Part shown: positions 3,319 to 12,009 of the stretch, one piece after another
How positions within the stretch are numbered: the stretch's first letter is position 1
How the letters are laid out: each line of letters starts with the position of its first letter
DNA from: Candidatus Thorarchaeota archaeon
Lineage (GTDB): Archaea > Asgardarchaeota > Thorarchaeia > Thorarchaeales > Thorarchaeaceae
Direction of reading: 5' to 3'
NCBI GenBank assembly: GCA_011364985.1
Contig: RDOC01000009.1
Span: 32,407-54,460 of the forward strand
Length of the DNA stretch: 22,054 nucleotides
Position numbers and translations under genes: made by a program
The notes under the pieces: model-generated
What the model was told of the DNA's origin: nothing
Database searches by the model: none
Seen by the model: the letters and a program-made list of their open reading frames with translations, nothing else

Positions 3319-3510
3319 ATGCGTCCAAGATCAGAGTGGGTTATCTATGCTGGAGTCATGGCTTGTATAGCCTTGGCGATAGTTGGCGGATTCTCATATC
3401 CACTCATTGAACAGGGGCCAATGGCAATCATCCTATTCGAGACTCCTGTTCTTATTGGCATGATTGCCATTTTCATTTTGATATACAAGATGGGACCCCC
3501 AGGTTCCTGA
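3319..3510 (+). CDS. Small membrane protein, two TM helices
   Basis: 63 aa with two hydrophobic stretches (WVIYAGVMACIALAIVGGF; PVLIGMIAIFILIY); GGTGA upstream. Confidence 0.65.
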   Translation: MRPRSEWVIYAGVMACIALAIVGGFSYPLIEQGPMAIILFETPVLIGMIAIFILIYKMGPPGS

Positions 3511-3613: not shown

Positions 3614-4156
3614 ATGACTGAAACTGAAGAGAGAACTGGCCCCCCTGAAACACTAATCGAGCCAATTGATATGTCCAAGTTGGACCCGAAGTTTCGTAAG
3701 GAGATCCATAGTATGCCTAATGCTGAGGAGTTGTCCGCATGTTTTGCATGTACAACTTGCACAGCAGCTTGTCCAATTGCTAATCAATGGAATTACAAGC
3801 CACATCAACTAATCCGTATGATCTTGCTTGGAATGAGGGAAGAAGTCCTCTCTAGCAAGGAGATCTGGGAATGCCTTACGTGCTTCCAGTGTCAGGAACG
3901 TTGTCCACAGAAGGTAAAAGTCACGGATATCTTCTTTGACTGCAAGAACTTGGCTGCAGAAGAAGGCATAATTCCCCCCAATGTCCTGGCCCTAGGAAAA
4001 TCCCTTATTGAAAAGGGACAGCTGTATGAAGTACTCAATGACTGGGAACGGGAGGACTTGGACCTTGAAGCAGAAGTCCCAGGTTTAAACACTGATACTA
4101 TAAAGGAGATACTCCGAGGAACTCGGACTGGTCGACTTGTGGGAGGCGAGAAGTGA
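3614..4156 (+). CDS. hdrC: Heterodisulfide reductase subunit C (2x[4Fe-4S])
   Basis: CFACTTCTAACP and IWECLTCFQCQERCPQ.V motifs; P..LIRM..LG.REEVL; followed by hdrB. Confidence 0.93.
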   Translation: MTETEERTGPPETLIEPIDMSKLDPKFRKEIHSMPNAEELSACFACTTCTAACPIANQWNYKPHQLIRMILLGMREEVLSSKEIWECLTCFQCQERCPQKVKVTDIFFDCKNLAAEEGIIPPNVLALGKSLIEKGQLYEVLNDWEREDLDLEAEVPGLNTDTIKEILRGTRTGRLVGGEK

Positions 4157-4157
4157 G

Positions 4158-5024
4158 ATGCCAAGCTATAATCTCTATATGGGATGTAGTGTTCCAGCGA
4201 ACTATCCGAATTATGAAGCCGCAATGGTCAGGGTTGCTGAAGCCTTGGGAATGGAATTGAACTACATGGAGGGCGTCGCCTGTTGTGGAAGTCCCAATCT
4301 ACGGGCGTTTGACTACTTTGGTTGGCTTGTTGTGAATGCAGGAACAATTGCAATTGCCGAGAAGAACGGATATGACATAGTTACACCCTGTAATGGCTGC
4401 TTTGGATCTCTCAAGGATGTTCTAACTCACTTGAAGCACCACAAAGAAGACCTTGAGAAAGTAAATGTAGAACTGAAGAAGCACGGACTTGAGATGAAGG
4501 GTACTGTCAAGGTACGCCATATTGTTGAAGCAATGTACACTGATATTGGTATTGAAGAGATTAGGAAGAAGATCATAAAGCCGCTGGATGGAGTGGGAAT
4601 TGCTATTCACTATGGCTGCCATCTTCTAAGGCCAATTGAGGTGACCGAGTTCAATCCCGAGGTTCTACAGAAGATGGTTGAGGTGACAGGCGCAGAGGTC
4701 ATTGATTATCCTCTCTGGAAGCAATGCTGTGGAGCAACCGTTCTTCCTGTCAACGAGGAGCTGGCCATTAGACTCGCTCGCGATAAGCTGAAGTCTATGA
4801 AAGAAGCTGGTGCCACTTTTGTGACGGTTGTCTGTCCTGCATGTGGAAATCAGTTGGACTTGCAGCAGATTGGGTTGAAAGATTCATACGGAGAAGTCTA
4901 TGATCTTCCAGTGCTTCTCTACCCCCAGATACTGGGACTGGCTATGGGTATGAATGAGGAAGCAGTTGGTTTGGAGATGAACCGAGTTCCTGCAGATCCC
5001 ATCTTGGAGCATTTGACTGAATGA
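4158..5024 (+). CDS. hdrB: Heterodisulfide reductase subunit B (two CCG domains)
   Basis: YMGC..ACCG..TPCNGCF and HYGCHLLRP..QCCGA..VCPACGNQLD; both CCG motifs complete. Start re-called at ATG 4158, 1 nt after the hdrC stop. Confidence 0.94.
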   Translation: MPSYNLYMGCSVPANYPNYEAAMVRVAEALGMELNYMEGVACCGSPNLRAFDYFGWLVVNAGTIAIAEKNGYDIVTPCNGCFGSLKDVLTHLKHHKEDLEKVNVELKKHGLEMKGTVKVRHIVEAMYTDIGIEEIRKKIIKPLDGVGIAIHYGCHLLRPIEVTEFNPEVLQKMVEVTGAEVIDYPLWKQCCGATVLPVNEELAIRLARDKLKSMKEAGATFVTVVCPACGNQLDLQQIGLKDSYGEVYDLPVLLYPQILGLAMGMNEEAVGLEMNRVPADPILEHLTE

Positions 5025-5037
5025 GGTGAATACGTTA

Positions 5038-6288
5038 ATGTCTGACCCAGTTCTGGTCATTGGTGCTGGTGTTGCCGGAATGACCGCCGCCGTTGAACTA
5101 GCAGATAATGGGGTGCAAGTGGTCCTCGTTGATCGCAAGTCGACCATTGGAGGCAATGCTCTCAACCTCTATAAGGCATTTCCAACAGATGATTGCTTCT
5201 ACTGCTTCGAAGGAAATCGATGGCGTCCTGGTATCCGCAAGTGCTTCTACCGAAGTGCCATGATAGACCAGCCAAATATCGAGTTAATGACAAACACAAT
5301 TATACAGGACATATCTGGTACGCCAAGCAAATTTACTGTGAAGCTGGTCATAGGACCACAATACGTGGACCCAAAGAAATGCATAATGTGTGGTCTATGT
5401 GTAGAGGTTTCTGAAGCGTTTGCCCTTGAATCACCTCAATGTCAACCTCAGGCGGTGACGTACGATCCAAGCAAGTTGGATGAGGGAGCGAAGAAAGCAG
5501 AACAGGACTGCCCCACTAAGGCAATCTCATTGGATGCCAATCCGTCGGAGAAGACAATTACAGTCTCGGATATTGTTCTGGCGACCGGCTATCATGAGAT
5601 GCAGCCAGTAGCTGTGGATGAATATGGATACGGCGTTCTGCAGAACGTAATCACTCAACTTGAACTGGCCCGGATTCTCGACCCAAATGGACCTTTGGGA
5701 GGTAGGCTTGTTCGTCCCTCCGACGGGAGAGAAGCGAAACGAATAATGATGATTCAATGTGTAGGAAGCAGAGATGAGAATTACTACCCTTTCTGTTCGA
5801 AGATATGCTGTGTCTTTGCTCTCAAGCATGCCAATATCATAGCTAACGAGCGTGCGGATGGAAGGGTCAGTGTCGTCTATATGGATATAAGAACTTACGA
5901 CCGCCATGAGAGATACTACCGCGAAGCGCGAGAAGCGGGAGTTGAGTTTGTCAGAGGAAGGATCAGTCGAGTAGTATCAACAGAAGATGATACTCTGGAG
6001 ATCACTGTCTATGACTCACTCTTGGACAAGTATCTCCGCTTTTCCATAGATCTGCTGGTGTTGTCATCGGCTCTGGAACCCCCCGAAGGCTTGGATGAGA
6101 TTATTAAGACACTTGGACTCAAAACAGCCAGCGGCTATGTCGGACCTGCAGATGCAGCATCTGAGGACGAAGTTGTTGTGGGAGAACATGTCTATGCATG
6201 TGGAGGAGTCTTGGGACCTGCAGAGATCCCTGAGAGTGTGAACCAAGCTAGAGCAGTGGTTAGCAAGATACTCCAAGGGAGGAAGTGA
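5038..6288 (+). CDS. hdrA: Short HdrA-like flavoprotein (QmoA-like architecture: no N-terminal domain, no C-terminal ferredoxin)
   Basis: VLVIGAGVAG FAD motif at the N-terminus, FPTDDCFYC, inserted ferredoxin CIMCGLC...CP, QCVGSRD..CSKICC, YMDIR. Start re-called at ATG 5038 with GAGGTGA at 5023-5029. Confidence 0.88.
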   Translation: MSDPVLVIGAGVAGMTAAVELADNGVQVVLVDRKSTIGGNALNLYKAFPTDDCFYCFEGNRWRPGIRKCFYRSAMIDQPNIELMTNTIIQDISGTPSKFTVKLVIGPQYVDPKKCIMCGLCVEVSEAFALESPQCQPQAVTYDPSKLDEGAKKAEQDCPTKAISLDANPSEKTITVSDIVLATGYHEMQPVAVDEYGYGVLQNVITQLELARILDPNGPLGGRLVRPSDGREAKRIMMIQCVGSRDENYYPFCSKICCVFALKHANIIANERADGRVSVVYMDIRTYDRHERYYREAREAGVEFVRGRISRVVSTEDDTLEITVYDSLLDKYLRFSIDLLVLSSALEPPEGLDEIIKTLGLKTASGYVGPADAASEDEVVVGEHVYACGGVLGPAEIPESVNQARAVVSKILQGRK

Positions 6289-6294
6289 TGATCA

Positions 6295-8460
6295 ATGGGA
6301 AACAAATCTTCGGTTCTCCTCTGCACATGCGGCAAGCAGCTGAAGCTTGATTTCGATTTTCTCAAGGTCCAGGTTTCGAAACTTGGCCTAGCAGATTCAG
6401 TTACTGTGCACGATCTTCTTTGTCAGGAAGAGGGACTTGCTACCATTGAAAACCTGATATCCAAGAATGACGGAAGAGTTGTTATTGCGGCCTGTACAAA
6501 CCAGAAGATACAACCTCGAATTGAGCAGTATCTGCGTGCAAACGGCAAGGATCCATCACTAATTACCTATGTGAACCTTCGCGAACATTCTGCTTGGGTT
6601 CATGAAGACCTCAAGGAAGCCTCTCGGAAAAGCCTAGACATGATTCGAGGCGCCCTTGCAAGATCTGCGAAAGCAGTTCCGCTTCAATTGGAGAAGAAGA
6701 ACATTAAGAATCACGTCACTGTGATTGGAGGAGGAATTGCGGGACTAGAGTCAGCATTGAACCTTTCAGCACTCGGCTACGAGGTGGTCATATTAGAAAA
6801 AGCCGGAACATTAGGAGGACATGTTCTCGATCTTCCTATGGTGGCCCCGACTGGCAAATCAGGAAAAGAGATTTTGAAAAGTCGATTGGATGCAGTGGAA
6901 GCGAACAGTGGAATCACGGTTGTCACTAATGCAATGGTCAAGTATGTCGAAGGTGAGATGGGTGACTTTCGGGTACACTATATTGTAGGGGACAGTGAAA
7001 AGAAGTCCGAAACTCTTACTTCAGCAATCGTTATGGCAACGGGCTTCAAGGAATTCAAGCCAACAATGATGGACGAGTACAGGTATGGCAAGAATCCTGA
7101 TGTACTTACGCAATTGGAGCTCTCAAAGATGCTCTCCTTAGGAGCGCTGACACGTCCATCCAATGGTGAGACTGTGAAAGAGATTGTAATGGTTCAATGT
7201 GTAGGCAGTAGAAATGAGAACTATAAACGAGACTGTAGCAAACTGTGTTGCACTTTTGCAATAGATAACTCGTTGGAAGTTCTCAAGATGAGCCCAGATG
7301 CAACTGTTAGAATCGTATACATGGACATCCGTGTCCCCTTTGAGAACGAGATGATCTACAAGGAGTCGAGAGAAAAGGGAGTTGACTATATTCGAGGAAG
7401 AATCAGTATGGTCTGGGAGGAGAATGGACAGACTAAGGTCCGTATATATGACTCATTAATGAACAAGTATATTGAAACCACACCGGACCTTTTGGTGCTT
7501 TCCACGGCAATACTACCCCCAGAGGGGATTACTGAGCTCTCTGAGACTATGGGCTATGCAGTCGAAGATGATGGACATATCAAGGATCTATATGGAAAAC
7601 TAAGGCGCACTGAAACACGCCGGAGAGGTATTGTAGCAGCAGGCGCCGTTACCAGACCTCAGTTTGTATTTGAGGCGGTCACTGATGCACAGGCCGCTGC
7701 CTTGGTTCTACATAACGAACTGCAGGGAGGGGTCATTCAGAAAATTGCACGAGGCGCAGTTCTCAACGTGGACGATTGTGTGGGTTGCAGTCTTTGTGCT
7801 CAGCAATGTCCACGAGGGGTTCCCTTGATGATTGAACAGGCTGAAGCAGAAGAGCTAGATGAAGACCAGAAGTTTCTCTTCAAAGCAGCAATTGATACAT
7901 TGAATTGTCATGCATGTGGTGTCTGCCAGAGTCTGTGTCCTTCTGGTGCTACTGAGTTGAACTTCCTAACAAATGAACAACTGTGGGATGAGATTGATGC
8001 TGTCCTAGAAGGGGCTGGTCCTGAAGAGCCAATCACACTCTGCTTCTACTGTGAGGAATGTGCTGTGTCCACCATTGACATCGTGGGCACGAGAAGAATT
8101 CAATACCCAAGCAACAACCGACTCATTCCAGTTCCCTGTGCAGGACGCGTTTCGATTATTGATATTCTTCGTGCTCTTGAGAAAGGGGCTAGTACTGTCA
8201 TGATAGCCGCCTGCGAAAAGGATCGTTGTCATGCTGGCGGAACTGGTAATGAGATTGCGCAAATACAGGTGGATGTTGCCCAAGACATTCTGAATGCCAT
8301 TGGTTGGAAAGAAAAGCGTGTTGAGATGTTCAGAATGTTCAGCGCTGAACCGGAACGTTTCATCAAGGCAATTGAGGAGATGACGGAGAGGGCTAAGAAA
8401 CTAGGACCAACTCCAGTTCATGACGGAACAGCCGGCAAATGGGTGGAGGTGACCAAATGA
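6295..8460 (+). CDS. hdrA: HdrA-MvhD fusion flavoprotein (QmoB-like architecture)
   Basis: N-terminal CTCG..LC..AACT..NLREH.AWVH domain, VIGGGIAG, QCVGSR..CSKLCC, C-terminal CVGCSLCAQQCP and CHACGVCQSLCP, then MvhD [2Fe-2S] domain FYCEEC..YP..VPCAGRV..AAC...CH...GN. Confidence 0.92.
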   Translation: MGNKSSVLLCTCGKQLKLDFDFLKVQVSKLGLADSVTVHDLLCQEEGLATIENLISKNDGRVVIAACTNQKIQPRIEQYLRANGKDPSLITYVNLREHSAWVHEDLKEASRKSLDMIRGALARSAKAVPLQLEKKNIKNHVTVIGGGIAGLESALNLSALGYEVVILEKAGTLGGHVLDLPMVAPTGKSGKEILKSRLDAVEANSGITVVTNAMVKYVEGEMGDFRVHYIVGDSEKKSETLTSAIVMATGFKEFKPTMMDEYRYGKNPDVLTQLELSKMLSLGALTRPSNGETVKEIVMVQCVGSRNENYKRDCSKLCCTFAIDNSLEVLKMSPDATVRIVYMDIRVPFENEMIYKESREKGVDYIRGRISMVWEENGQTKVRIYDSLMNKYIETTPDLLVLSTAILPPEGITELSETMGYAVEDDGHIKDLYGKLRRTETRRRGIVAAGAVTRPQFVFEAVTDAQAAALVLHNELQGGVIQKIARGAVLNVDDCVGCSLCAQQCPRGVPLMIEQAEAEELDEDQKFLFKAAIDTLNCHACGVCQSLCPSGATELNFLTNEQLWDEIDAVLEGAGPEEPITLCFYCEECAVSTIDIVGTRRIQYPSNNRLIPVPCAGRVSIIDILRALEKGASTVMIAACEKDRCHAGGTGNEIAQIQVDVAQDILNAIGWKEKRVEMFRMFSAEPERFIKAIEEMTERAKKLGPTPVHDGTAGKWVEVTK

Positions 8461-10724
8461 GCAAGTCGAAGGATTTGGACCTCATGGCACCAAAACGCCG
8501 CCGAATGATGGATATGATCCTCGTCTTGGGAGGACTAAAAGAGGAATCTGCGATTCCTGCAAGCAGAGTAAGTAGCGAGCTTGAAAATCTCAAGACGGAG
8601 ATAGCGCCTCTAATCAATGAAACACTCGCATTTCCCAATGCCTACTTCTTGGAGCTTTCGGAAACAATTGAAAAGACAAGACTCCTCTCTCAAGTTTCGG
8701 ACAGAGCTCTACTTGCAAATGCAGTAGAGAAGCTCGATAAAGCTGTGGATGCGGCGAGTAACGATGGAATTGTTGGTCTACTTGAATTGCTAAAGACTGC
8801 GCTAAATAAATTAGTGGGCTCATATAAGACTACTACAAAGGAAACCAAAGTGGATATTGATGCAATTCTCAAATCACTTCCTGATATTGTCAATGGTCTT
8901 GAAGCAATTGTAGGAAATTTCGAAAACGCCTCAATTCAGGAAACAGAGGCAGCTGGTTCTGAATTGACAGCATTGACATCTGCCATTTCGGATGCCGCTG
9001 TAACGGTTCAGAGTGATCCTGAAGCCGCACTGGATACTCTTCAGAAGATTGGAACAAAGACAAGATACGGTCCGTTTCTCAGAACCTCAGCGCAAGTCAG
9101 GCGAGGAGTCCGAGAAGAACGTATTGGCGAGGATAGATTTCGACAGCTCCTCTCTACGAATATTCTCACTGAGTTGCGACGCGGTGTCATTATGTTTGTC
9201 TTGAGCAAGATGGGTTCGAAGACTGTCCTACAAATGTCGGACTTGATGAAGACCCCTTCAGTCGAGATTCAGGCTGCAATCATCAGCATGATTCAGCGTG
9301 GAGAGGTCGAGATGGTAGGTCTCGATCGTGATGCTCCGGTCTTTGCAAAGGTTCACGAAAGCGTTCCAGATACGACTCTAGTACTAAAGAGAGTCATACA
9401 GCAGATACGAGGGGTAGCAAAGACATTACAAGAATCTTCCAAGAAAGAAAACACTGGTTCGCTAGAACATCTAGAACAGCTCCTTCGTCGCTTGCAGAAA
9501 CTGGGCCAATACGATGAAACTGCACTTGCAGAACATATGAATAAACTGAGGGCTACTGCTGATGCTGCAACAGAAGCAGCGCTTTCAACTAGTGGTGATG
9601 AAACATCCGAAGACCTTAGACTGCTTATTTCTGCAGGACTTGAAGCTTTTGCCAGATTCAGACTAAAAATCGCTTTGGAGAAGGGACCCAGTCTCGTATC
9701 TGAAACCAATGTGTACGGAGAGAAACTTGATCCTGAAGTCTATGAGAAGATGATGTCGAGCTATCTTGATAATGAGATTGAGCGAGGAACGATTCTCATT
9801 CTGATTCGCGGGCTTGGTGCAATGACAGCAGAAGACCTTGCAAAACGAACATCGATACCGCAAGATAGGATTCTCCAACATCTACTCAGGATGAAACGGG
9901 ATGAGCTCCTGACGCTGGCTGGAGAAAAACATGGGTATGTTCTATTTGATGTACCAAGAACACCATCCGAGGCCGAGGTAGCCATACAAAGTGCTAGTGA
10001 TCTTGCACTTCAGCTTTCGCTGGCGAAGGCTGAGCTTGATATCGTTCTGGGAGACTTCAAAGCGGAATATATTGGCAGACTCGCTAATTCACTAGAAGCC
10101 GTTGCAAAGGCACGTGATAGATTGGAAAAAGTAACCGTTGATGGTGCTAGAGTCGGCGTATCAATCTTGAAGGCTGTAGAAGAAAGCGCAAGATCAGCGG
10201 TCGCATTGGCATATCGAACCCGAGCCAGATTACCAAGCACACGACCAAAGGTCACTCTTGAGGATCTTGAGAATGTGGATGTGCCTTCAGTCCTTGATGA
10301 GTATAGATCACAGATGGGATATGCTCCACTGCTAGGATTTGGAACAATAAACTGGGAGATGTCTAGGTGTCTGGGCTGCAAATCTTGCGAGATCTCATGT
10401 CCTGAGGATGCAATTGAACTGAAGCCAGTGATTGAATTGCCAAGACTCTTTGACTTCTCGGAAGAAGAGATGGGAAAGCTACCGATGAATAAATCCTTGT
10501 TCTATACGACAGTCCGGAATCTAGCTGTCGCAAAACCAGCAAGCAATATCACGCTTGACAGGGAGGCGCCGGGATTTGGTACTGTAGAAGTCGATCTTTG
10601 GCTCTGTGTTGCATGTCGAACTTGCGTGCGACGGTGTCCAGGTCCCGAAGATGGTGCCCTTGAGCTGGAACTCAAGTGGAATCTCCCCGAAGTGGTGCGT
10701 CATATTACTGCTGAAACTAGATAG
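8457..10724 (+). CDS. Uncharacterised multidomain protein: helical bundles, two winged-helix repeats, C-terminal 2x[4Fe-4S] ferredoxin
   Basis: ATG 8457 overlaps the upstream stop (ATGA), GGAGGTGA at 8445-8452; CLGCKSCEISCP and CVACRTCVRRCP; two wHTH-like segments align without gaps. Confidence 0.85.
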   Translation: MSKSKDLDLMAPKRRRMMDMILVLGGLKEESAIPASRVSSELENLKTEIAPLINETLAFPNAYFLELSETIEKTRLLSQVSDRALLANAVEKLDKAVDAASNDGIVGLLELLKTALNKLVGSYKTTTKETKVDIDAILKSLPDIVNGLEAIVGNFENASIQETEAAGSELTALTSAISDAAVTVQSDPEAALDTLQKIGTKTRYGPFLRTSAQVRRGVREERIGEDRFRQLLSTNILTELRRGVIMFVLSKMGSKTVLQMSDLMKTPSVEIQAAIISMIQRGEVEMVGLDRDAPVFAKVHESVPDTTLVLKRVIQQIRGVAKTLQESSKKENTGSLEHLEQLLRRLQKLGQYDETALAEHMNKLRATADAATEAALSTSGDETSEDLRLLISAGLEAFARFRLKIALEKGPSLVSETNVYGEKLDPEVYEKMMSSYLDNEIERGTILILIRGLGAMTAEDLAKRTSIPQDRILQHLLRMKRDELLTLAGEKHGYVLFDVPRTPSEAEVAIQSASDLALQLSLAKAELDIVLGDFKAEYIGRLANSLEAVAKARDRLEKVTVDGARVGVSILKAVEESARSAVALAYRTRARLPSTRPKVTLEDLENVDVPSVLDEYRSQMGYAPLLGFGTINWEMSRCLGCKSCEISCPEDAIELKPVIELPRLFDFSEEEMGKLPMNKSLFYTTVRNLAVAKPASNITLDREAPGFGTVEVDLWLCVACRTCVRRCPGPEDGALELELKWNLPEVVRHITAETR

Positions 10725-10803: not shown

Positions 10804-12009
10804 ATGGCAATGGTTGACTTTAGCTACACAAAGGCACAACTCGATCTTCAAAGACGTGCACGTGAGTTCGCTCAGGAATATATGATTCCCTATGCTCATT
10901 ACTATGACAAGACAGGTGCATTTCCGCGACCTATCATCCAGAAATGCTGGGATGAGGGACTGATGAATCTTGCAATCCCAAAGGAGTATGGAGGACCGGG
11001 ATTAGGAGTAACAGAGCAATGTATTGCTGTTGAAGAAATGGCAGCAGGATGCGCTGGCATGACTACAAGTATTTACGTGAACACTCTTGGCGCAGAACCC
11101 ATTCTTATTGCAGGAAATAAGGAGCAGAAGGAGAAGTATCTTAAACCCCTAACTGAGGAACTCAAGTTTGTTAGCTTTGCTTGCTCCGAACCCGGAATAG
11201 GGAGTGATGTGGCTGGAATCGAGACCAGGGTTGAGAAGAAGGGCGACAATTATGTGTTGAATGGTGCAAAATTCTGGATCACCAATGCCCCTTATGCTGA
11301 TTACTTCACAGTCTTCGCCAGCTTGGACCCTAATCAGCGTCACAAAGCCCTGTGTGCCTTCATTGTTGATGCCGACACTCCTGGAATAAAGACGGGGCGG
11401 CCTGTTGAGAAGATGGGGCACCGAGCATCGACCACATCTGCGGTTATGTTTAGAGATGCTGAAGTACCAGCAGAAAACATACTTGGTTCTGAGGGAGAGG
11501 GGTTCAAGATAGCTATGCAGACCTTCGCTATGACTCGACCATCTATTGCAGCGTTCGCAACAGGTCTTGCCAAGGCAGCAATGGAATATGCTCGCGAGTA
11601 TGTGAATAAACGGGAGGCCTTCAATCAGAAACTGCGTGAGTTTGAGGTAATTCAGTTCAAACTTGCAGAGATGTACATGAAGATAGAAGCATCTCGTCTG
11701 CTCTATCTGAAAGCTGCATGGACTGCAGACAACAAAGAAGATTCCACTGTCCCCGCAAGTGTTGCGAAAGCAATTGCTACAGATGTAGCGATGGAGGTGG
11801 CAAGTGAGGCAGTACAGATCCACGGGGGCTACGGCTATATCGATCAATACCCTCTTGAAAAACTGTTTCGTGATGCAAAGCTCTACCAGATATATGAGGG
11901 GACCAGTGAGGTTCAGCGTCTAATCTTGGGTCGGTATGTGTTGAAGGGCTACAAGCCAGCCATGGAACAAATCCCGAAGTGGTTGAACGAGGCGCCCCCG
12001 AGCTTCTAA
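10804..12009 (+). CDS. Acyl-CoA dehydrogenase
   Basis: IPKEYGG.G, FACSEPG.GSD, LNGAKFWITNA, KMGHRAS.T, R.AF...L..F..IQFKLAEM, QIHGGYGY, YQIYEGTSEVQR with the catalytic Glu. Start may be ATG 10810. Confidence 0.96.
   Translation: MAMVDFSYTKAQLDLQRRAREFAQEYMIPYAHYYDKTGAFPRPIIQKCWDEGLMNLAIPKEYGGPGLGVTEQCIAVEEMAAGCAGMTTSIYVNTLGAEPILIAGNKEQKEKYLKPLTEELKFVSFACSEPGIGSDVAGIETRVEKKGDNYVLNGAKFWITNAPYADYFTVFASLDPNQRHKALCAFIVDADTPGIKTGRPVEKMGHRASTTSAVMFRDAEVPAENILGSEGEGFKIAMQTFAMTRPSIAAFATGLAKAAMEYAREYVNKREAFNQKLREFEVIQFKLAEMYMKIEASRLLYLKAAWTADNKEDSTVPASVAKAIATDVAMEVASEAVQIHGGYGYIDQYPLEKLFRDAKLYQIYEGTSEVQRLILGRYVLKGYKPAMEQIPKWLNEAPPSF

Follow-up and report, generated by a model that had tools for sequence, protein, structure and literature searches.

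Flavin-based bifurcation of the Hdr type is central to models of Asgard energy metabolism, and these models underlie the syntrophy hypotheses for the origin of eukaryotes. Annotations of Asgard Hdr-like operons usually name no more than the HdrABC and MvhD parts. In the solved Hdr-type complexes, donor modules attach on the side of HdrA that carries the C-terminal ferredoxin and MvhD domains, as is seen for MvhAG, FdhAB, and, through BamF/BamI, BamGHI. The electron cryomicroscopy preprint on the class II benzoyl-CoA reductase (BCRII) of Geobacter metallireducens (10.64898/2026.04.10.717634) reports that BamF is an adaptor of the MvhD type, exceeds the usual length by over 100 residues, and contacts BamI through its winged helix. 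Here we describe an uncharacterized subunit gene of an Hdr-like operon found in a 22,054-nucleotide (nt) stretch of DNA from a Candidatus Thorarchaeota archaeon (contig RDOC01000009.1, positions 32,407 to 54,460), hereafter the window. The gene is a single stop-free frame at 8457-10724, stop codon included, and encodes a 755-amino acid (aa) iron-sulfur protein that we refer to as the adaptor; the genes and domains of the window are given below in window coordinates and lie on the forward strand, and coordinates that follow the name of another locus (L001 and so on) refer to that locus. Our analysis suggests that the adaptor is probably an integral, non-catalytic subunit of a Qmo/Hdr-like complex that combines the roles of adaptor and electron relay, with its ferredoxin domain docked on HdrA2-MvhD and its winged-helix parts serving as a docking platform.

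The adaptor has at least 282 close homologues with lengths of 735-761 aa. Databases name the family only as a "4Fe-4S dicluster domain-containing protein" or "ferredoxin/MarR", and literature searches returned no description of it. A first-pass annotation of this DNA, made without database searches, had named a full-length match to a characterized family as a point that would count against its reading, and no match to such a family was found. The adaptor is present in 85 of 85 genomes of its own family (Thorarchaeaceae) and in all 7 genomes of three other Asgard families. Elsewhere in the phylum, no full-length adaptor was found at an expect value (E) ≤ 1e-10, only short partial matches in five genomes of four further families; these are stretches of the ferredoxin domain in three genomes of three families and, for the fourth family, a stop-interrupted match spanning residues 383-510 in 2 of its 6 genomes. 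In every locus examined, the adaptor gene lies directly after mvhD. The gene order in Thorarchaeota, which is kept across genera with a single exception among the loci checked, is hdrC-hdrB-hdrA1-hdrA2mvhD-X-ACAD, where X is the adaptor gene and ACAD encodes an acyl-CoA dehydrogenase. In distant Asgard clades, one of them named Helarchaeota, the adaptor is 22-26% identical and the order is hdrA1-hdrA2mvhD-X-hdrC-hdrB. A 449-aa form of the adaptor with one winged helix follows a free FlpD gene.

The C-terminal domain of the adaptor (residues 626-755, 10332-10721) is a 2×[4Fe-4S] ferredoxin, which is matched by Pfam Fer4_7 at 36.9 bits (cut-off 27) and modeled by AlphaFold2 (AF2) with a predicted local distance difference test score (pLDDT) of 81-86. 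The two CxxCxxCxxxCP motifs are located where they had first been read, at C638-P649 (10368-10403) and C717-P728 (10605-10640), and none of their eight Cys varies among 31-37 Asgard sequences. The adaptor is recognized by generic Fer4 profiles alone and does not contain the CCG, HdrC-type Fer4_8/17, or hydrogenase domains of canonical HdrB, HdrC, MvhA, and MvhG. When the domain was compared by sequence with solved structures, FwdF and MvhB, the polyferredoxins of Hdr supercomplexes, scored best, with E values of 2e-17 to 2e-13, and these matches are confined to the Cys motifs.

The two motifs are separated by 68 residues (between C648 and C717), which the first-pass annotation described as an unusually long insert. 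It does not represent an insertion; the segment is one half of a tandemly duplicated unit. This became evident from stand-alone proteins of ∼160 aa that match adaptor residues 624-750 and in which the unit [helix, P..I.VP, GFG, CxxCxxCxxxC] is present twice. The two halves of these stand-alone ferredoxins align with each other (hhalign, 99.9%, E 6e-33) and therefore the "insert" (residues 655-707, 10419-10577), which consists of a helix and an LP.N...LA.K.P...I motif, is the lead-in helix of the second unit. Judging from the alignment, the first lead-in is decayed into the LPSTRPK...GFG linker, which aligns with the N-terminal helix of the stand-alone ferredoxins. This linker (LPSTRPK...P.V.DEY, residues 593-625, 10233-10331) is predicted to be disordered, with a pLDDT below 50, and P593-R596 are invariant in Thorarchaeota. 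The ∼160-aa ferredoxins are encoded directly after hdrA1-hdrA2 pairs in six Asgard loci, and in Thorarchaeota the ferredoxin domain is also found in a 318-aa fusion with an MvhD domain. The recurrence of this domain after hdrA1-hdrA2, either alone or fused to MvhD, suggests that it is a constant element that goes with HdrA2/MvhD.

Complex prediction places the ferredoxin domain on HdrA2-MvhD. Residues 481-721 of HdrA2, which comprise the C-terminal ferredoxin and MvhD domains, were folded together with adaptor residues 380-755. The complex score was 0.87 in all three runs, compared with 0.00 for the best of three controls; 58 of 80 solved complexes attain this mark, as do 2 of 110 mismatched pairs, although these counts apply only roughly because custom alignments were used. 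Contact agreement between runs was at least 73% and the partner pLDDT was 60-62. On the adaptor side, the interface is formed by residues 639-646 and 725-733, around the cluster bound by C638/641/644/727, and by residues 659-665 and 675-707 of the lead-in ("insert") helix. On the HdrA2 side, it is formed by residues 494-504 and 547-551, around the cluster bound by C495/498/501/548, by residues 526-529, and by the MvhD helices 620-629 and 654-671 and the tail 707-717. The ferredoxin domain, with the insert helix included, is thus predicted to sit on the C-terminal ferredoxin and MvhD domains of HdrA2.

Upstream of the ferredoxin domain, the adaptor consists of helical regions and two winged-helix modules. 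The full-length AF2 model, calculated with Thorarchaeota-only rows, was poor for the second winged helix and the ferredoxin domain (pLDDT 27-45), and residues 380-755 were refolded by AF2 with a diverse alignment. The N-terminal region (residues 1-200, 8457-9056; pLDDT 80-89) is all-helical and acidic, contains a nearly invariant K13-R14, and belongs to no known family; it has no Pfam match, and residues 1-225 gave no usable match in the ESM Atlas. It is followed by a basic linker (residues 201-224, 9057-9128; net charge +5) with a K-TRYGPFLR...AQVKRG motif, in which the columns K201-G205, R209, and Q213-G217 are invariant. Winged helix 1 (residues 225-300, 9129-9356) is modeled with helices at 225-252, 257-264, and 268-280 and strands at 284-290 and 293-298. 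A central helical segment (residues 301-384, 9357-9608; helices 305-378) connects it to the FRLK helix and NVYGEKLDPE loop (residues 385-425, 9609-9731), a lead-in that is invariant in Thorarchaeota. Winged helix 2 (residues 426-500, 9732-9956), which was located by AF2, Foldseek, and phmmer, is followed by a helical hairpin (residues 501-592, 9957-10232) with helices at 505-532, 536-556, and 568-591.

The two winged helices were first noted as repeated segments 201 aa apart, starting at E239 (nt 9171) and E440 (nt 9774), and this duplication holds. A gapless alignment of the 50-residue segments gives 10/50 identities and is not significant on the single sequence (BLASTP E 0.16). The family profiles do provide significance, with hhalign reporting 82% and E 1e-5 for Thorarchaeota-only profiles and 98.4% and E 7.9e-15 over 87 columns (residues 221-308 versus 422-508) for the diverse Asgard alignment, and we therefore accept the repeat as homologous. 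The predicted structures bear out the helix-HTH-wing pattern that had been read from the letters: both modules (225-298 and 426-498) fold as helix-helix-helix-hairpin, with a pLDDT of about 82-88 for winged helix 1 and about 90 for winged helix 2, and long helices flank both of them, as had been noted. Foldseek, which the first-pass annotation had proposed together with structure prediction as the means of checking the fold, finds winged helices in both modules; MarR, PadR, and ArsR regulators are matched at a probability of 0.9-0.99, and a Z-alpha winged helix is matched with a target-normalized template modeling score (TM) of 0.87 and a root-mean-square deviation of 1.6 Å. Against the PDB, neither AF2 model has a Foldseek match at E ≤ 1e-3. 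RPC62, the top full-length match (E 4e-3), was rejected as a relative because the TM is only 0.08-0.14. At the level of sequence, the regulator families stay below their Pfam cut-offs: TrmB scores 14.3 bits (cut-off 25.6), Rrf2 13.2 bits (30), and HTH_9 11.8 bits (23.4). In Thorarchaeota, the net charge of the adaptor is -16 to -39 and that of helix 3 plus wing is -4 to 0 in winged helix 1 and -2 to +1 in winged helix 2.

The module around winged helix 2 has relatives among MvhD proteins. The first-pass annotation had noted a resemblance between the NVYGE segment and a winged-helix extension of some MvhD proteins, and this was correct; a FRLR...GNVYGEKL...winged helix module occurs fused behind FlpD domains or as a stand-alone protein. 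In an exhaustive phmmer search of 1.84 billion proteins, 59 representatives match, some of them only over adaptor residues ∼384-500. Three of these (P0163, P0170, and P0176) consist of an FlpD/MvhD domain followed by the same module (phmmer E 1.7e-7 to 8.5e-4), and other carriers are stand-alone proteins of 110-170 aa, including P0166 and P0171. Each column of adaptor residues 396-440 has its counterpart in the tails of P0163, P0170, and P0176 and in stand-alone P0166 and P0171, and the adaptor module and the MvhD tails have in common the FRLR helix, the GNVYGEKL loop, a long helix, and the winged helix. Residues 385-500 are homologous to the tail of "long MvhD" proteins. In the adaptor, the module is not fused to FlpD; the FlpD domain resides on the upstream HdrA2 product and the module starts 385 residues into a separate chain. 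The description of the NVYGE-winged helix module as detached, duplicated, and placed right after MvhD was therefore accurate.

The long-MvhD module is also present in further lineages. A DNA-pattern scan for GNVYGEKL matched 89 stretches, of which 14 were homologous by tblastn, two of them belonging to the adaptor family itself. Pattern and tblastn together place the module next to FlpD, or in one chain with it, in Bathyarchaeia, Thermoplasmata, Syntrophobacterales, and Thermodesulfobacteriota; in Syntrophorhabdaceae, the two are within a few kb of each other. Where loci were scanned with Pfam (Bathyarchaeia, Thermoplasmata, and Thermodesulfobacteriota), the module lies beside ∼1000-aa double-HdrA genes. 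Sequence searches of the PDB with P0163 and the family profile returned MvhD domains and Cys motifs only, and the tail module appeared in no solved structure; a word-indexed search with the P0163 tail returned itself as the sole match. It should be noted that in one Thermodesulfobacteriota metagenome-assembled genome (L102, 128-3758) the double-HdrA and long-MvhD genes are followed by genes for a PAS histidine kinase and a sigma-54 response regulator, and the large HdrA there also has a glycine-cleavage H-protein (lipoyl-type) domain.

A natural variant of the adaptor was found in seven Thorarchaeota genomes from three genera, in which this form of 972-998 aa (P0124) is the only copy (loci including L123 (G317), L124 (G348), and L006). 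The variant keeps residues 1-205 and 416-754, the latter stretch being 60% identical to the adaptor of the window, and its gene position between mvhD and the ACAD gene is unchanged. Residues 206-415, which contain winged helix 1, its flanking helices, and the FRLK helix, are exchanged for a GltD/NfnB-type NAD(P)-binding iron-sulfur flavoprotein (Fer4_20 and Pyr_redox_2; NF009410, E 5e-142). The junction at which the flavoprotein module begins is the basic linker 201-224. A built-in NAD(P)H module on an MvhD-docking protein fits the donor position of Hdr-type bifurcation, and it suggests that the region exchanged in the variant normally recruits a separate donor.

Taken together, the domain architecture, the two internal duplications, the relationship by homology with the tails of long MvhD proteins, the synteny, the flavoprotein variant, and a predicted interface that passes its controls were all obtained by computation, and they support a model in which the complex would be a soluble flavin-iron-sulfur assembly of HdrC, HdrB, the short HdrA1, the HdrA2-MvhD fusion, and the adaptor. 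The C-terminal 2×[4Fe-4S] domain would dock on the C-terminal ferredoxin and MvhD domains of HdrA2, with the "insert" helix as part of the docking surface, and would lengthen the cluster chain running by way of MvhD to the HdrA flavin. The docking site would then be the place at which donor modules attach in the solved complexes, and we infer that electrons enter, rather than exit, at the adaptor. The helical regions and the two winged-helix modules would form a protein-protein docking platform, in which winged helix 1 and its flanking helices may be an exchangeable donor site that is replaced by a built-in flavoprotein in some Thorarchaeota. The bifurcated electrons would leave via the inserted ferredoxin of HdrA1 and via HdrC/HdrB, as in known Hdr enzymes.

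Several points weigh against this interpretation. Every interaction of the adaptor is a prediction, and winged helix 2 makes no confident contact in the complex model. The docking prediction covers the C-terminal 241 residues of HdrA2 and does not bear on the inserted ferredoxin of HdrA1, the usual low-potential exit. Ferredoxin-type subunits have been solved on Hdr complexes, and likeness to them could inflate the score. The homology of BamF to the adaptor module is based on the description in the preprint together with the FlpD-plus-tail proteins found here. Lastly, helix 3 plus wing of winged helix 2 reaches a net charge of up to +6 in the Helarchaeota clade, where nucleic-acid binding may still occur.

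One alternative is that the adaptor tethers the downstream ACAD to the Hdr-like core in Thorarchaeota, which would make the system an Hdr-type counterpart of bifurcating Bcd-Etf, acting in enoyl-CoA reduction or in energy-assisted acyl-CoA oxidation. The ACAD gene (10804-12009, identified by Pfam) lies directly downstream of the adaptor gene, and ACAD follows the adaptor in each of the 11 same-genus loci inspected (L006, where the adaptor is the GltD-type variant, and 10 of L010-L020); among 11 loci of other Thorarchaeota genomes, it does so in 10. With an identity of 74-85%, ACAD is also better conserved than the adaptor. Against a tether, the clusters of the distant Asgard clades have no ACAD gene beside the adaptor gene and one Thorarchaeota genome (G323) does not have it at this place. 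That locus, L117 (G323:C190), is the sole exception among the Thorarchaeota genomes checked, and a separate MvhD-like match is located ∼2 kb downstream in it. In addition, EtfAB, the usual partner of ACAD, is encoded elsewhere in the genome to which the window belongs, which rules out the idea that ACAD is without its usual partner. The potential of the acyl-CoA/enoyl-CoA couple is too positive for the role of a mid-potential donor. Entry of its electrons at MvhD would thus be disfavored and ACAD, if coupled at all, would more likely be on the high-potential side. For these reasons, we consider a tether to be a possible but rather doubtful function.

Alternatively, the adaptor could provide an output instead of an input, with a ferredoxin domain that, like the methanogen polyferredoxins MvhB and FwdF, carries low-potential electrons to a partner enzyme held by the winged helices. 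The identity of the best solved-structure matches and the conserved ACAD neighbor in Thorarchaeota are in line with this proposal. However, resemblance to the polyferredoxins is limited to the Cys motifs, the predicted interface lies on the MvhD/C-terminal-ferredoxin side of HdrA2, which is the donor side in solved complexes, and the NAD(P)H-type module of the variant suits a mid-potential donor, all of which make an output function quite unlikely. Finally, a redox-sensing transcription regulator, with [4Fe-4S] clusters that sense redox and winged helices that control the operon by binding DNA at a site such as the hdrC upstream region, is highly improbable: the true winged-helix folds with regulators as best structural matches, the precomputed MarR or TrmB Pfam matches of some homologues, the MarR-type name given by JGI, and the perfect 12-nt inverted repeat in the spacer before hdrC speak for it, but no regulator family reaches its Pfam cut-off (TrmB comes closest), the protein is acidic with a neutral-to-acidic recognition helix and wing, the gene is translationally coupled inside an enzyme operon with its place after mvhD kept across the divergent clades, the module recurs in many lineages as a fusion with MvhD and makes a protein contact in BamF, and winged helix 1 can be exchanged for a flavoprotein. 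The first-pass annotation had proposed either a redox-sensing DNA-binding subunit or a scaffold that connects the complex to another enzyme; the former is not supported, on account of the Pfam scores, the charge of the recognition helix and wing, and the coupling, and the latter is favored because of the synteny after mvhD, the long-MvhD-tail homology, the predicted docking, and the flavoprotein variant.

The translational coupling of the adaptor gene to hdrA2-mvhD is evident in the sequence itself (8445-8460). A Shine-Dalgarno sequence, GGAGGTGA, is located at 8445-8452 and the ATG at 8457-8459 overlaps the hdrA2-mvhD stop codon, TGA, at 8458-8460. An alternative ATG at 8439 would give a longer open reading frame (ORF); the ATG at 8457 is preferred because of the Shine-Dalgarno sequence, the ATGA overlap, and the N-termini of 30 homologues. 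The upstream genes were assigned with Pfam and NCBIfam as hdrC (3614-4156), hdrB with two CCG domains (4137-5024), hdrA1 (5026-6288), which encodes a short, 420-aa HdrA with an inserted ferredoxin, and hdrA2-mvhD (6295-8460), which encodes a longer HdrA with a C-terminal ferredoxin and an MvhD/FlpD domain. By Pfam, HdrA1 has its inserted Fer4 at residues 113-168 and is without FlpD, and HdrA2 has its C-terminal Fer4 at 489-552 and the FlpD domain at 582-704; this domain difference is a QmoA/QmoB-like division of labor. No apr or sat genes were found among the genes of the window.

Farther upstream of hdrC, the window contains genes for PCNA, PriS, and GINS, which, along with the homologues that carry names, assign the DNA to a Thorarchaeota (Asgard) genome. 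The 333-nt spacer between a GINS-linked ORF and hdrC holds the inverted repeat, with the arms AATGGCAATCAT at 3420-3431 and ATGATTGCCATT at 3460-3471 placed 28 nt apart; it could be a terminator, an operator, or a chance occurrence and is not treated as an operator here. In other Thorarchaeota, a second, paralogous cluster sits just upstream of the orthologous hdrC-hdrB, at the place taken by PCNA, priS, and GINS in the window. Its order, as seen in L135 (G369:C338, 3283-10781), is hdrC'-hdrB'-hdrA1'-hdrA2'-[318-aa ferredoxin+MvhD fusion]-hdrA''. In the distant Asgard clades, a conserved ORF of 93-94 aa with no Pfam family lies between flpD and hdrA1 (L001, 4003-4284; L003, 4274-4558; L005, 4314-4595). 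A Helarchaeota FlpD gene is annotated as a pair of ORFs, 57 and 48 aa long (L001, 3524-3904; L002, 2645-3025), and the related loci L003 and L005 have one FlpD gene of 128-136 aa. The split may reflect an in-frame TGA (selenocysteine) or a break, and bacterial FlpD-plus-tail genes at L102 and L045 are split in a similar way.

If the adaptor is an integral subunit of the complex, it is a universal extra component in Thorarchaeaceae that most likely marks where the complex exchanges electrons with a partner, and NAD(P)H is suggested as one such partner by the GltD-type variant. In addition, the adaptor clearly illustrates the reuse of winged-helix "DNA-binding" folds as protein connectors, and annotation of the family as a MarR-type regulator should therefore be avoided. 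A broader proposal, which we regard as tentative and somewhat unlikely, is that the adaptor is the donor-docking platform of an undescribed class of Asgard Hdr-type bifurcating complexes, with exchangeable donors at winged helix 1 and coupling to ACAD in Thorarchaeota. If true, some lineages would have an NAD(P)H flavoprotein built in as the donor and others would recruit a dehydrogenase, and these quinone-poor archaea would gain an Hdr-based route that links the redox chemistry of acyl-CoA derived from fatty acids and amino acids to ferredoxin.

Compared with known systems, the adaptor shares single elements with several. MarR, ArsR, and PadR regulators have the same winged-helix fold, but the adaptor differs in its acidic surface, its place as a subunit in an enzyme operon, and its scores below the Pfam cut-offs. 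RPC62/RPC82, with multiple extended winged helices, likewise shares the fold and is set apart by the low TM given above. In QmoABC and QmoAB-HdrCB of sulfate reducers, the layout of the partner genes is the same, with a short HdrA-like protein, a longer HdrA-like protein that ends in MvhD, and HdrC/HdrB-type proteins; we know of no Qmo subunit with winged helices or a duplicated ferredoxin. The uncharacterized 160-aa ferredoxins and 318-aa ferredoxin-MvhD fusions of Asgard share the [helix-P..I.VP-GFG-CxxCxxCxxxC] ×2 arrangement, at 27-35% identity, and the gene position after hdrA1-hdrA2, but do not have the 625-residue helical and winged-helix part of the adaptor. BamI, MvhG of Mvh-Hdr, and FdhB of Fdh-Hdr resemble the adaptor in its predicted place, with clusters set against the HdrA C-terminal ferredoxin and MvhD and feeding the flavin path; the sequence relationship is limited to the ferredoxin motifs, and the canonical adaptor has no catalytic donor domain. 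The long-MvhD adaptors, exemplified by BamF, come closest in the module itself: both are found with HdrA-type flavoproteins and MvhD, and the ∼110-aa tail with its FRLR helix, NVYGEKL loop, long helix, and winged helix corresponds to adaptor residues 385-500. In contrast to these proteins, the adaptor carries the module unfused on a separate 755-aa chain and in duplicate, with winged helix 1 as a diverged copy without the NVYGEKL loop, and combines it with a two-cluster ferredoxin domain.

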